Of a stretch of 37,588 nt of DNA, positions 24,678 through 29,102 are shown in pieces; position 1 is the first letter of the stretch; each line of letters opens with the position of its first letter. The stretch comes from a virus (lineage: Duplodnaviria; Heunggongvirae; Uroviricota; Caudoviricetes). The stretch covers positions 1-37,588 of the IMG/VR virus record IMGVR_UViG_2563366827_000004. One strand, 5' to 3'. Position numbers and translations under genes: made by a program. The notes beneath the pieces are model-generated. The model did not search any database and was not told the DNA's origin. It saw nothing but the letters and a program-made list of their open reading frames with translations.

Positions 24678-26054
24678 TCATACGTCCGCCCCTTGTGCAT
24701 ATCGTCTGCCACGCGCAGCAGGTGCATTTGATGCTGTGCAAATCTGTCTGGCTTCATCCTGGTCACATGCAACAAAGTGTCCGTTGCAGAACCGCTGGTA
24801 AACCGTACCAAGTGAGCCAAAACGGTTTTTTGTCACAATGATTTCAGCAAATGGTGCGGCGCTACTGTTCTCGTCATATACCGCTTCCCGATAGAGCATG
24901 ATGATTGAGTCTGCGTCCTGTTCAATGCTTCCAGAATCACGCAAATCTGCGTTTGTCGGGCGTTTGTTTGGTCGCTTCTCAACATCGCGCGAAAGCTGAC
25001 TCAGGGAGATAACAGGCGTTTTCAGGTCTTTCGCCATCGCCTTCAGGCTTCCGGAGATGTGAGCAATTGCGAGGTCGTTGCGGTCTGCTTTCGGCTTCTC
25101 AATCAGGCCAAGATAATCCGCCATGATGAGTGACAGGTTTGGATTTTCCTGTTTATGCCGTTCTGCGATTGAGCGTATTTCTTCGACCGATAACCGCGAG
25201 GCATCGACTACCCATACATCCAAATCTGCAAGCTGACTCATGCCGTTAGCAACACGCGCCCAGCCTTCGTCATCCATCGATGCAGGATTTCGCAGTACGC
25301 TAACCGACATCCTCCCGGCGTTGGCAATGCTTCGCTCTGCAATCTGCAATGCGCTCATTTCCATCGAGAAAATCAACACTCCGCGCCTGACGTCAGAACC
25401 AGGAATAACGCGGCTTGCAACGCCTTCGGCAATCTTCAGCGCCAGTTCGGTTTTCCCCATACCAGGACGAGCAGCGATTATCACCAGGTCTTCCGCGTTC
25501 ATCCCTCCGGTGATGGCATCAAGTTCTTCGATTCCGGTCTTCAGGGTATCTGACTCTTCTCCGTTCCTCAGACGCCTGTCAAGCGTGTCAGTGTAGTCAG
25601 TGATGATTTCCCCTAACCGTACAGGTTTAACCTCGTCACGGGGCTTTCTGATGGCTGAAAGACGCTTTACAAGTTCATCCATCGCCTGACTCGATGCGTC
25701 GATGGTTCCGCTCTGAATTGGTTCACGCATTTCATCCATGATTTCCAGCACCAGACGGCGGTGATAGTTATCCGCGACCATTCCGGCATATCCCTTCAGG
25801 TTTGCGGCACTCGGGCAGTTTTTGCTGGTCATCAGGATTGACGTGAAATGCTCCTCTCCGCACGCCTCGGCAACCATCAGCGCATCGATTAGGTTTCTGT
25901 TTCTCGCCTGCTTGCGGATAACCTCGAAGGCTTTCCGGTAGAGCGGAATTGAAAACGCTTCCGGCTCCAGCGTTGCAAGAACGTCACTGGCGGTTGGAGT
26001 TAATCCACCAATCAGCAGGCCACCGATAACGCTCGCTTCGATATCCTGTCTCAT
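24678..26054 (-). CDS. Replicative DNA helicase, DnaB family
   Basis: 458 aa; Walker A ARPGMGKT and DnaB-like C-terminal domain; at the P22 gene 12 position downstream of O. Confidence 0.85.
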
Positions 26055-26998
26055 GCAATCCCCCTGTCTGCAAACTTCCCTTCCCGAACTCCCGTTAACG
26101 AGTCTTCTCTCAGCAGGTAATCAAAATCAGCCGTCCAGCCCGTGTCGTTGTCTCCGAAGTAAAACGGCTTGGCCTGATGCACAAACGCCCTGACATACGC
26201 TCTGAAACCGTCCACGTTTGGCGTTTTCAGTTGCGGGATGATTTTCTTCAGGCGGCGTTTTCGTTTCTCGTTGACCGCAACAGCGTGTGGCAGTCTGTCA
26301 CCGACTTCGGTGTTGTAGGCGTTCAGGAAGGATTCGTAGTCGATTCGTTCTGCCTTGCGACGTTCAGGTTTAACCTGCCCATCGCCTCCCCCATTGGGGG
26401 GTAGGGGGGTATTATTTATATTCTTGTTAATACCTTCTTGTTCATGATGTGCGGTTGTTTGTGCGGCTTCATGTGCGCTTTCATGTGCGGCATGTACGCT
26501 GAAAGCCGCGCTATTGCTGGCTTCATCATGTGCGGCATCATGTGCGGTTGTTTGTGCGGCTTCATGTGCGGGTAAATTGTCCATTTTTTGAGCATATTCA
26601 TGGTAATTTGTGATGGTTATCACACGGCCTTTTTGCTTCTCTCCATCAATGGAGATCATCCCCTCTTTCACAAAAACCTGAAGCATCCGCTCAACCTGAT
26701 CACGGCTTGCTGGCTTGCCATGTCTGTCGCATAACTGAAGACCTAAATCAGCTGCTGTCACAACCAGTTGACCGGGTTGCAGATGCCATTCATGACCTTT
26801 GAAATTCGCTTTGTATGGCTTTCTGGCGGCATTCAGGAGAAGGTTTTCCCACAGGGTGCGAAGATAAACATCTTTCGCCCATGACTGTTTCAGAATGCTC
26901 CGGTACAACGGAATGTAACCAGTTTTCTGGTTCTCCATCCTGTTGCTCCTGCGCTCGTGTGCGGCGCTGAAATCGTAGATTTTTGCTGTATTGCTCAT
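26051..26998 (-). CDS. O: Replication initiator O-like protein
   Basis: 315 aa; N-terminus [10 protein letters not shown] resembles lambda O (MTNTAKILNF); iteron array inside the gene; 4-bp overlap with the helicase gene. Confidence 0.75.
26441..26571. repeat. Origin-like iteron array (~9 tandem copies of a 12-bp unit nnTCATGTGCGG) with adjacent AT-rich block
   Basis: Tandem units seen directly; AT-rich stretch at about 26400-26440, downstream in the direction of O as in the lambda origin. Confidence 0.5.
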
Positions 26999-27000
26999 AA

Positions 27001-27273
27001 CTACCTGCCTTGACGAAAGACCTTAAGAACATCGTTAAACTGACTTACGGATATGTCTTCTTTGAGAAGCTTTTCCAGAAATGCGTTTGGAATGAACGTA
27101 TATCCCTCCTCTTTTGGTAGAGACGGGAGCAACGCCCTCGCCTCAGCCTTCAGAAGCTCAGTTCTGGCAACTTTCACAAAAGAGATTTGAGTTCTTTCAT
27201 CAATGGAACGAAGGAAGCGCAAACGCTTAGCTTCTTTGTGTGTATCAGGTGGATTAAAGCCTTTGTTTCGCAT
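27001..27273 (-). CDS. Hypothetical basic 90-aa protein between cII and O
   Basis: ATG at 27273 preceded by GAGGT; 22 bp after the cII stop and 2 bp before the O start. Taken from inside the longer track ORF 27001..27546. Confidence 0.55.
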   Translation of the reverse strand: MRNKGFNPPDTHKEAKRLRFLRSIDERTQISFVKVARTELLKAEARALLPSLPKEEGYTFIPNAFLEKLLKEDISVSQFNDVLKVFRQGR

Positions 27274-27295
27274 ATAATTACCTCGTTGGATGTTG

Positions 27296-27589
27296 TTAAA
27301 ATTCCATTTGTATTTGATCAGAACGCTCGGTTGCCGCCGGGCGTTTTTTATTGGTGAGAATCGAAGCAACTTGTCGTGCCAATCGAGCCATGTCGTCGTC
27401 GACAACACCCCATTCAAGAACAGCAAGCAGCATTGAGAACTTTGGAATCCAGTCCCTCTTCCACCTGCTGATCTGCGACTTATCAACGCCCACAGCTTCC
27501 GCTGTCTTCTCAGTTCCAAGCATTGCGATTTTGTTAAGCAACGCACTCTCGATTCTTAGAGCCTCGTTGCGTTTGTTTGCACGAACCAT
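27296..27589 (-). CDS. cII: Transcriptional activator CII
   Basis: 97 aa from MVRANKRNEALRIESALLNKIAMLGTEKTAEAVGVDKSQISRWKRDWIPKFSMLLAVLEWGV..., near-identical to recalled lambda CII. Confidence 0.95.
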   Translation of the reverse strand: MVRANKRNEALRIESALLNKIAMLGTEKTAEAVGVDKSQISRWKRDWIPKFSMLLAVLEWGVVDDDMARLARQVASILTNKKRPAATERSDQIQMEF

Positions 27590-27600
27590 ATGTAAGTATT

Positions 27601-27640
27601 TCCTTAACAAATAAGAAGTTATGCGCATCAACTTATGCGC
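27601..27640 (-). terminator. tR1-like hairpin between nutR and cII
   Basis: Minus-strand GCGCAU-N6-AUGCGC followed by a U-rich tract; weak. Confidence 0.3.
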
Positions 27641-27647
27641 GTTGTAT

Positions 27648-27691
27648 TCCCGCATTTCGGCGGGAATGAGGACCATGACTGTTAAAGAGCG
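27648..27691 (-). promoter_or_regulatory. nutR (boxA CGCTCTTTAACA and boxB hairpin)
   Basis: Minus-strand boxA is a perfect consensus, followed by a 6-bp stem hairpin UCCCGC-CGAAAU-GCGGGA, between cro and cII. Confidence 0.7.
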
Positions 27692-27697
27692 GTGTTA

Positions 27698-27892
27698 CTA
27701 TTTGTTTTTCTTGTTGCTTGGGAAAGGACGAACTTCCTCTCCAATCACACTGCCATCAGGCTTTACCGTAACCATAATGTTACGGCCTGCCAGAATGGCC
27801 TTGCTGATAGCGCACTGGATTACACCAAAGTCACTGGCTGCTTTAGCCTGTCCATGGATTTTGGCGTAATCGGCAAGTGTCATTCGAATCAT
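27698..27892 (-). CDS. cro: Cro repressor
   Basis: [62 protein letters not shown] aligns with recalled lambda Cro; ATG 27892 sits 6 nt after GGAGA. Confidence 0.9.
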
Positions 27893-27921
27893 ATGCACTC
27901 TCCGTTATTAACCATGAACAA

Positions 27922-27992
27922 AGAATACTACAGGTATTCAAAGCAATCAATACTTAGGGTATTTTTAGTTTAAGTACCTTAGCTATTAGAAT
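27922..27992. promoter_or_regulatory. OR operator region with divergent pR and pRM
   Basis: Palindromic sites AATACTACAGGTATT (27924-27938), AATACTTAGGGTATT (27949-27963) and a degenerate third (about 27972-27987). Minus-strand pR: -35 TTGATT, 17 bp, -10 TATTCT. cI ATG has no SD, so probably leaderless from pRM. Confidence 0.65.
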
Positions 27993-27998
27993 TAAGCT

Positions 27999-28715
27999 AT
28001 GGAAAATAAAAAATCACTGACGACAGAACAGCTGGAAGACGCTAAGCGGCTTAAGGCTTTGTATGAGTCAAAAAAGAAAGAATTGGGAATAACCCAATAC
28101 TCAATCGCTGATGAACTGGGTATCACCCAAGGAGCGGTAGGGCATTATCTTAATGGCAGAAATGCGCTAAACGTTGAGGTTGCATCTGGTTTTGCACGAT
28201 TGTTGCAAGTCTCAATTGCTGATTTTAGCCAGTCAATTGCTGCCAAGGTTGCAGAACAGGCAGAAAGCCTTAAGAGCGATGCCAACGTAAGGTATGCAGG
28301 GGAATACAGAGCAGGAAAGAGGTATCCGGTGTTAAGCAGTATCCAGGCTGGCTCGTGGTGTGAAGCATGCGAACCATACACCATTAAAGACATAGATGTT
28401 TGGCTTGAGTCTGACGCGCATATTCAAGGTAATGCGTTCTGGCTTAAAGTGGAAGGTGATTCAATGACGGCACCGGTTGGGTTAAGCATTCCAGAGGGAA
28501 CATTCGTTCTTTTCGATACCGGAAGGGAGGCGATCAACGGCAGCTTGGTCATAGCAAAACTTTCTGACTCTAACGAAGCAACATTCAAGAAGCTGATAAT
28601 CGACGGCGGAAATAAATACCTCAAGGGACTTAATCCTGCATGGCCTCTCGTGCCAATCAATGGAAACTGCAAGATTATAGGCGTTGCAATTGAGACAAAA
28701 CTCAGACTGGTTTGA
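27999..28715 (+). CDS. cI: CI repressor (lambda-CI-like, LexA-type autocleaving C-terminal domain)
   Basis: 238 aa; aligns with recalled lambda CI along its length (TQEQLEDA.RLKA.YE.KK.ELG...FWL.VEG.SMTAP...FTFKKLI.D) but the HTH recognition-helix region differs. Confidence 0.9.
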   Translation: MENKKSLTTEQLEDAKRLKALYESKKKELGITQYSIADELGITQGAVGHYLNGRNALNVEVASGFARLLQVSIADFSQSIAAKVAEQAESLKSDANVRYAGEYRAGKRYPVLSSIQAGSWCEACEPYTIKDIDVWLESDAHIQGNAFWLKVEGDSMTAPVGLSIPEGTFVLFDTGREAINGSLVIAKLSDSNEATFKKLIIDGGNKYLKGLNPAWPLVPINGNCKIIGVAIETKLRLV

Positions 28716-28733: not shown

Positions 28734-29102
28734 ATGGTTGGAACCGCTATAGCAAGCTTTTTTGGGATGTTGGCAATCTCGACAATTTACGGCTTAGCGC
28801 ATGCTTTTATTGCGAAATCTCTATCAGAAAAAATAAGCCAGGCTTGGGCGCATAGATCAGCTCGTTTCATGATTCTGGTGATCATAGCAATACAAGGGAT
28901 ATCTGCATTTATCCTCTATGGATCAAGCTTATACCTATTGTATCAAGGCGCGACATTTACGCCTTACACCAGTGATTACGGAACTCTATACGATGGTAGT
29001 GAAGACATCACTGTGGCTTGGATCGTCTTTGGTTTATCTATGGCCGTGTCTGTTGTAGCAGACATCATTAAGGTAATTCTCGTCTTAACCTTCGCTGACT
29101 AA
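28734..29102 (+). CDS. Hypothetical 3-TM membrane protein, rexAB-position gene
   Basis: 122 aa; AGGGGG RBS 5 nt upstream; starts 18 bp after the cI stop; three hydrophobic segments (about aa 2-27, 45-70, 92-120). Confidence 0.7.
   Translation: MVGTAIASFFGMLAISTIYGLAHAFIAKSLSEKISQAWAHRSARFMILVIIAIQGISAFILYGSSLYLLYQGATFTPYTSDYGTLYDGSEDITVAWIVFGLSMAVSVVADIIKVILVLTFAD

Follow-up and report, generated by a model that had tools for sequence, protein, structure and literature searches.

A small conserved gene between cII and O of a P22-like phage genome appears to encode a truncated paralogue of the O replication initiator

The replication modules of lambdoid phages are a textbook subject and bear on the biology of Shiga-toxin phages. 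Their layout has already been described as cII-oop-'orf'-O-P, with lambda "naturally missing" the small ORF (PMC3349717). In lambda, the 5' end of O is itself embedded in the oop promoter p_o (PMC6022878), and replication responds both to how active p_o is and to where it lies with respect to ori (PMC3985674). P22 carries orf48 in the small slot (DUF2740; hkaW in HK620); the 'orf48' of PMC12373910 is an unrelated library identifier and was rejected as a source. In HK97 the slot holds gp53 (phrog_1331), and in Klebsiella phage Mulock it holds a ParB-like protein of 265 aa. Coupled leader ORFs are also found ahead of plasmid initiators under antisense-RNA control, such as tap-repA of R1 with CopA and repY-repZ of ColIb-P9 with Inc RNA.

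Here we analysed a 37,588-nt stretch of viral DNA (the window), positions 1 to 37,588 of IMG/VR record IMGVR_UViG_2563366827_000004. The genome is a mosaic of P22-like (Lederbergvirus) type, with E212, IME10, and CUS-3 as relatives, and positions 26000-27690 are 100% identical to CUS-3. A preliminary description of the window had reported a 273-nt, 90-aa ORF with a GAGGT ribosome-binding site that exactly fills the gap between cII and O. We recovered the identical peptide, with a 22-nt spacer after cII and 2 nt between its stop codon and the ATG of O. That description omitted the strand; the ORF, here called ORF90, lies on the minus strand, with its ATG at 27273 and a TAG stop at 27003-27001 (Table 1). 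It had also been presented as an extra protein-coding gene, which holds relative to lambda, but the slot was already known from P22 and HK97, and the gene itself is already catalogued as PHROG 2519. CUS-3's authors left it unannotated in their record.

Table 1 Features of the ORF90 locus in window coordinates.
Feature	Position	Strand	Basis and remarks
DnaB-type replicative helicase (P22 gene 12 type)	24678..26054	-	DnaB_C 9.5e-78, DnaB N-domain 4.5e-13
O-type replication initiator	26051..26998	-	PF04492 3e-15, phrog_345; Phage_rep_O N-domain, ori iterons inside, helicase-binding C-domain
ORF90 / 'mini-O' (90 codons + stop)	27001..27273	-	Sequence, translation, PHROG 2519, dN/dS
SD-like sequence for O, AAGGCAGGT	27003..27011	-	Within the last codons and stop of ORF90
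Conserved core GYxFIPNxF...SVxQFNxVLxxF, codons 54-88	27010..27114	-	Homologous to lambda-type O residues 24-58
Basic N-terminal extension, codons 1-32	27178..27273	-	Short-form profile covers ORF90 33-89 only; extension without counterpart in the 59-62-aa forms
Putative oop promoter p_o	27250..27278	+	-35 TGGATT 27250-27255, 17-nt spacer, -10 TATAAT 27273-27278; aligned with lambda p_o and P22's annotated oop promoter
Shine-Dalgarno GAGGT of ORF90	27281..27285	-	Direct sequence reading; 7 nt 5' of ATG
oop-like antisense RNA	27286..27353	+	5' end inferred at about 27286; terminator stem 27320-27347 plus T-run; antisense to the cII 3' end
cII, upstream neighbour	27296..27589	-	PF05269 (Phage_CII) at 5e-48

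ORF90 lies on the pR strand between the cII stop (27298-27296) and the start of O, and begins in the p_o region, as is typical of the lambdoid 'orf' slot. From this position, the strand, and the ribosome-binding site, it is predicted to be an early gene of the pR operon. The 3' end of cII is near-identical to that of lambda, the GAGGTAATTATATG string at the ORF90 Shine-Dalgarno (SD) sequence is kept in family loci, and the helicase gene 3' of O forms the end of the replication module. The ORF90 frame is also open in the 5' direction to a GTG at 27546 inside cII, giving a mechanical ORF of 181 aa (27001-27546, minus strand), which explains the over-long gene calls of 120-164 aa seen elsewhere (P0001, P0002, P0035). 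These are the same gene, either over-extended or fused to cII.

The PHROG 2519 profile matches ORF90 over its full length (1.9e-57, residues 1-90 on profile positions 1-90 of 90), and the divergent family members P0039, P0042, and P0040 match it as well. Members of this family, with sequences that equal or nearly equal ORF90, are labelled 'hypothetical protein' in HF4s, JEP4, Gally, Kapi1, TL-2011a, and RefSeq E. coli genomes, and NCBIfam gave no matches. Among 5,426 complete E. coli genomes, 279 (about 5%) have the gene, each time as a 'hypothetical protein', and so do 57 phage records that include about 50 Stx2a-converting phages. Within the phage collection, the full-length O allele is held by the same 57 records, so that what these genomes carry is an ORF-O pair. 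Prophages of E. coli, Salmonella, Scandinavium, Pseudescherichia, and Klebsiella carry homologues of about 90 aa whose identity reaches down to about 41-71%. In a collection with one genome per species, only two loci had a member of the ORF90 family. A 74%-identical copy also lies at 2265-2507 of OR850084.1, a 2,692-bp record named 'Staphylococcus phage SA 1298 Kay'. This copy is identical to the match in Salmonella phage S.Inf 5-2, and the record is probably mislabelled or a contaminant sequence.

ORF90 is a real gene under purifying selection. In pairwise Nei-Gojobori comparisons of members that are 71-80% identical, dN/dS is 0.08-0.19 (pN 0.10-0.19, pS 0.5-0.85), with synonymous sites near saturation. 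By this measure ORF90 is at least as constrained as cII and O of the same loci, its dN/dS being equal or lower, and the constraint spans the entire ORF at about 0.1. The preliminary description had named the lack of conservation and of third-position wobble patterns in related phages as grounds for dismissing the gene; since dN/dS is low and synonymous sites are near saturation, we found the reverse. We also retrieved 79 viral contigs through their O gene, a sampling that is unbiased for ORF90. The 90-aa ORF is intact in 77 of them; one copy is frameshifted, and one (L105) retains the last 27 codons only.

These results bear on whether ORF90 could be a decaying recombination scar, that is, the 5' stump of a replaced O left open by chance, or else an artefact of gene calling. 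A stump would be expected to show homology to the first ~58 residues of O, as ORF90 does (see below), the gene went unannotated by CUS-3's authors, and some of its alleles are frameshifted. The dN/dS values effectively refute this reading, however. Length and frame are kept over 41-96% identity and across two bacterial families, with the core retained down to 41%, the gene has its own SD sequence, and it is intact in 97% of the loci retrieved through O. We therefore consider a scar or an artefact highly improbable.

Several alleles show recombination within the gene. L105:1-305 (IMGVR_UViG_2541047790_000014) has only the last ~27 ORF90 codons, located 5' of an otherwise 99%-identical O. This remnant is joined to unrelated DNA coding on the opposite strand, which marks a recombination junction within the ORF. 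Similar mosaics are P0043 (a Cro-like N-terminus with the ORF core), P0014 (a cII-ORF fusion), and P0023 (the ORF N-terminus with Dam-like sequence). Frameshifted alleles of 79 and 75 aa (P0022, P0025, P0016; L180:3001-3240, L181) are spread over dozens of E. coli contigs, and in the deletion alleles P0020 and P0024, ORF90 codon ~52 is fused to the C-terminal end of the helicase, with O removed. The frameshifted and deleted alleles are evidence of decay in some resident prophages. Because such alleles circulate, loss of ORF90 appears to be tolerated at least in resident, possibly defective, prophages.

The product had been described as basic and helical, and both properties are borne out by the predictions. 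Its pI is 9.99, most of the charge lying in the N-terminal half (pI 10.9), and an AlphaFold2 (AF2) model built from 19 sequences (pLDDT 83.8) has four helices, at residues 10-23, 26-51, 63-71, and 76-87, and a short hairpin at 54-59. A first AF2 run with 12 sequences was poor (pLDDT 57.6), and the 19-sequence run was good. In the 19-sequence model, the core hairpin and two helices are packed on the two N-terminal helices, and a complete winged helix and wing are absent. Fold searches returned nothing specific or informative, and when PDB sequences were searched with profiles of the family or of O N-domains, all matches were at chance level.

Profile comparison was more informative. The preliminary description recognised no motif in the product and proposed profile and structure searches for a fold. 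PHROG 2519 has no assigned function, but the C-terminal core of the product proved to be homologous to some 35-58 residues at the N-terminus of O-type initiators. The match of ORF90 itself to Phage_rep_O is weak (residues 55-88 on positions 6-39; 14.6 bits, E 0.048, below the gathering threshold of 28.7). Across the family, 16 of 19 members match Phage_rep_O at positions ~6-39, with a best E of 5.2e-5, and the family also matches phrog_678, 'replication initiation O-like'. We compared the family with a lambda-type O N-domain profile made from lambda O, P22 gp18, HK97 gp54, and three Morganellaceae O proteins. By hhalign, family residues 54-88 align with O residues 24-58 at a probability of 86-91% and E of 1e-6 to 5e-6. 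In a column-shuffle control, none of 300 shuffles reached the real score of 36.5 (mean 9.7, sd 1.9, max 15.6; z about 14).

A search with the core only led to a subfamily of 59-62 aa in Providencia, Proteus, and Xenorhabdus. Residues 1-57 of this short form align end-to-end with O residues 1-58 (E 1.7e-5), and the short form also matches ORF90 residues 33-89 (E 2e-25). From these two alignments, ORF90 consists of a unit paralogous to the first ~58 codons of an O gene plus a basic extension of 32 aa. With respect to O-type initiators such as lambda O and P22 gp18 (PF04492), the homology covers the first ~58 residues and is collinear, including the leader, the GY-x-x-[IL]-x-N strand, and two helices. 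It stops at Phage_rep_O position 39 of 95, or O residue 58, with only 2 more residues before the end of the protein. ORF90 thus differs from these initiators in having no recognition helix or wing (profile positions ~40-95), no iteron-containing linker, and no helicase-binding C-domain, as well as in its N-terminal extension, which is unrelated to them. Because the recognition helix is missing, ORF90 is not expected to bind the ori iterons in a sequence-specific manner. When 1.84 billion representatives were searched exhaustively by profile, no long O-like protein had the ORF90 N-terminal half. On the strength of these alignments, we consider ORF90 to be paralogous to the 5' end of O and truncated. 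A literature search found nothing on the ORF90 family, and in the sources searched we found no earlier description of the relation of PHROG 2519 to O, which extends across two bacterial families.

The N-terminal extension may have a separate source. Like ORF90, P22 orf48 and HK97 gp53 start in the conserved p_o/RBS segment after cII, and their 3' ends overlap or abut the O-type gene, in the same position and on the same strand. They differ in belonging to other protein families and in being about half as long, and the O-like core is found in ORF90 only. The phrog_1331 profile did not match ORF90, the DUF2740 profile gave no match to the ORF90 N-terminal halves, and hhalign of ORF90 with DUF2740 gave a probability of 4% (E 0.011). 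There are weak collinear matches between the ORF90 extension and P22 orf48 (E 0.002-0.011), and in the Proteus locus a DUF2740-like ORF is located directly 5' of the short form. It is possible that ORF90 is an orf48-like gene fused to a mini-O. In sum, the comparison of cII-O junctions that the preliminary description had called for shows a conserved ORF90 family in a slot that unrelated genes occupy in P22, HK97, and Mulock.

A gene of the ORF90 family is directly 5' of a Phage_rep_O gene in every locus examined, across E. coli, Salmonella, Scandinavium, Pseudescherichia, Klebsiella, Providencia, Proteus, and Xenorhabdus. The surroundings are variable. The upstream neighbour can be cII, a DUF2740-like ORF, or a Cro-like gene without cII, and the helicase can be DnaB, DnaB with a LAGLIDADG intein, or a Toprim/AAA primase-helicase. 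The O protein also varies, with an ENQKTGY-type N-domain in the window and a lambda-type one in the Morganellaceae, and with different C-domains. The intein-containing helicase belongs to Stx phage TL-2011a (L002:3805-6198; the LC6160xx Stx2a phages are alike), where a DnaB-type protein of 797 aa is located 3' of an identical ORF-O pair and the intein, with its LAGLIDADG homing-endonuclease domain, is inserted in DnaB_C.

The junction between the two genes is equally consistent. In all family loci examined, the ATG of O is either 2 nt past the stop of the small ORF or overlaps it by 4-8 nt, and in 8/8 loci examined the SD sequence of O (AAGGCAGG, GGAGGG or GGGAGG) is inside the last codons of the small ORF. 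The proximity of stop and start, together with the internal SD sequence, indicates that the small ORF is translationally coupled to O, as judged from its arrangement. A programmed frameshift fusing ORF90 to O was considered and rejected. The frame of O relative to the small ORF is -1 in the window and L092 and +1 in L093 and L177-L179, and there is no slippery heptamer before the stop, which excludes a conserved fusion of this kind. A side observation concerns window positions 26441-26583, inside O, where an array of repeats with a period of ~12 nt, (T/C)TCATGTGCGG and TTGTTTGTGCGG, presumably represents the ori iterons and encodes a His/Ala-rich linker.

The start of ORF90 is equally crowded. 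The putative p_o overlaps the ATG and codons 1-8, and the antisense strand, TTTCGCATATAATTACC, is kept in the window's relatives and family loci, with a consensus -10 at the position of P22's annotated p_oop. A consensus promoter scan missed p_o, as its -35 matches at only 3/6 positions. The segment after the cII stop (…ATCAAC·GGAGTnATTATG) is common to lambda O, P22 orf48, HK97 gp53, and ORF90 in a DNA alignment, and its opposite strand is the oop promoter. The oop-like RNA is near-identical to the 3' half of lambda oop and its terminator was found by scan; an Rfam scan of 26000-28200 gave no match, the oop-like RNA included. As in lambda, then, the 5' end of the gene after cII is embedded in p_o, with ORF90 here in the place of O and the distance from p_o to the iterons longer by about 275 bp. 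In the O gene of the window, the first ~25 nt (ATGAGCAATACAGCAAAAAT) are also lambda-O-like, and their antisense strand (26973-27001, +) retains a vestigial second p_o-like promoter, TCGTAG-17 nt-CATAAC compared with TTGAGT-17-CATAAT in lambda. That the ORF90 start and the O start both resemble the lambda O start would fit a partial duplication at the 5' end of O.

The coupled stop/start, the position ahead of an initiator, and the antisense RNA (here oop) by the RBS make ORF90 look analogous to tap of R1 and repY of ColIb-P9. It could be that ORF90 has mainly a role in cis, as a leader that delivers ribosomes to the O start and as DNA that carries p_o and sets the spacing from p_o to ori, with a functionless peptide. 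The SD sequence of O within its last codons, a stop and start no more than 2 nt apart or overlapping, and the overlap of its ATG and first codons with the p_o -10 and -35 all agree with such a role. The invariant MRNK and FRQGR ends of ORF90 coincide with these nucleotide-level elements, and in lambda p_o is known to affect replication through its activity and position (PMC3985674). The plasmid leaders, though, are peptides of 24-29 aa that act by being translated and not through their sequence, whereas ORF90 is a paralogue of the initiator under strong purifying selection. In other words, ORF90 has the stop/start and internal SD sequence of a coupled leader but not its unconstrained peptide (dN/dS 0.08-0.19). 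Selection at the protein level extends over the whole ORF with synonymous sites saturated, and the most conserved part of the family is the internal core motif rather than the ends, with the core retained in distant genera whose nucleotide sequences are unalignable. Roles in coupling and in p_o are also compatible with, and additional to, a functional protein. A purely cis-acting ORF90 is thus quite improbable.

We favour a reading in which ORF90 is a translated early paralogue of O, coupled to O and acting on or with it through protein contact, and we give this reading a probability of roughly 45%. It follows from the paralogy, the obligatory adjacency, the coupling, and the purifying selection, and the small protein would most likely be a partner or modulator of O. 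ORF90 would be a basic protein of 10.5 kDa, helical for the most part, whose translation immediately precedes that of O. Its ancestral unit would be the 59-62 aa form seen in Morganellaceae prophages, which resembles the first ~58 residues of lambda-type O and would start with the N-terminal leader, followed by a short strand or hairpin and by helices one and two of the winged-helix domain that binds the origin. This unit would stop where the recognition helix and wing should start, and the version in the window would add the 32-aa basic N-terminal extension. It most likely originated by a partial tandem duplication of the O 5' end or by replacement of O downstream of codon ~60, after which selection would have kept it as a separate protein. 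Since the DNA-reading half of the domain is missing, action is expected to proceed through protein-protein contact with O. Such contact may tune the assembly of the O dimer or O-some, or the stability of O, at the origin, with ORF90 itself not binding iterons. That it is translated in vivo, that it physically contacts O, and that it may influence replication we infer from the comparisons described here.

Several observations run against this reading. The core of ORF90 resembles lambda-type O N-domains, and no homology was found between it and the divergent N-domain of the neighbouring O in the window. For this phage, a simple picture of ORF90 pairing with its own O by mimicry is therefore weakened. 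Lambda replicates without such a gene. Mulock, whose O has the same N-domain type (81% identical), and HK97 and P22, whose O shares the C-domain, also manage without ORF90 and carry unrelated genes in its slot. Given its absence from these phages, ORF90 is not a universal requirement of O, and the persistence of frameshifted and deleted alleles in prophages likewise speaks against a strict need for it. The adjacency to O could also partly reflect an origin by duplication instead of function.

The same mismatch fits an accessory early gene outside the phage's own replication machinery. ORF90 might be a dominant-negative fragment that poisons the lambda- or P22-type O of co-resident or superinfecting phages, or a host-takeover or counter-defence factor in a recombination-prone oop-O slot. 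Such a slot is suggested by its unrelated occupants in P22 (orf48/DUF2740), HK97 (gp53/phrog_1331), and Mulock (the ParB-like protein), by its being empty in lambda (PMC3349717), and by the recombination junctions inside ORF90 (L105, P0043, P0014, P0023), and loss-of-function alleles do persist in prophages. In Providencia, Proteus, and Xenorhabdus, however, the O next to the small gene is of lambda type too, and a poison fragment there would strike the phage's own initiator. The overlapping stop/start adjacency to O also persists despite exchange of cII and the helicase. PADLOC-DB profiles gave no credible match to the ORF90 family (JetB only, E 0.021, in one member, and none in the divergent members). 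Expression from pR, as predicted from the position of the gene, would occur in lytic growth and not in the prophage, which would limit a role in exclusion. On balance an accessory function seems unlikely, though less so than the cis-acting leader.

A more specific form of the partner reading would make the mini-O a dedicated trans-acting regulator of initiation. By pairing with the strand and helices at the N-terminus of O, or by competing for a factor that recognises this terminus (e.g., ClpXP), it would set the amount of active O at the origin; in mosaic phages it might also hamper the lambda-type O of rivals. We regard this as a speculative and rather doubtful proposal. If it were true, lambdoid phages would have a layer of replication control, or of competition between phages, that had gone unrecognised. 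More generally, a small protein that modulates O would give prophage replication after induction, and through it toxin gene dosage, a control point new to study, and would illustrate cleanly how a truncated copy of an initiator can be recruited as a regulator. If it has no measurable effect, ORF90 would be one more small gene at a mosaic junction, as in P22 and HK97.

Two further genes were noted near the repressor. Just 3' of the cI-like repressor (27999-28715), the window contains an ORF of 122 aa (28734-29102, +) that is co-oriented with the repressor and encodes several hydrophobic segments. The same gene follows the repressor in L180 and L181, and it may be a prophage-expressed membrane protein, perhaps with an exclusion or moron function. 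In a relative of the prophage (L006:1552-2457), a gene with a BstA_C domain (abortive-infection defence) adjoins the repressor, and its place is held by unrelated genes in other relatives.
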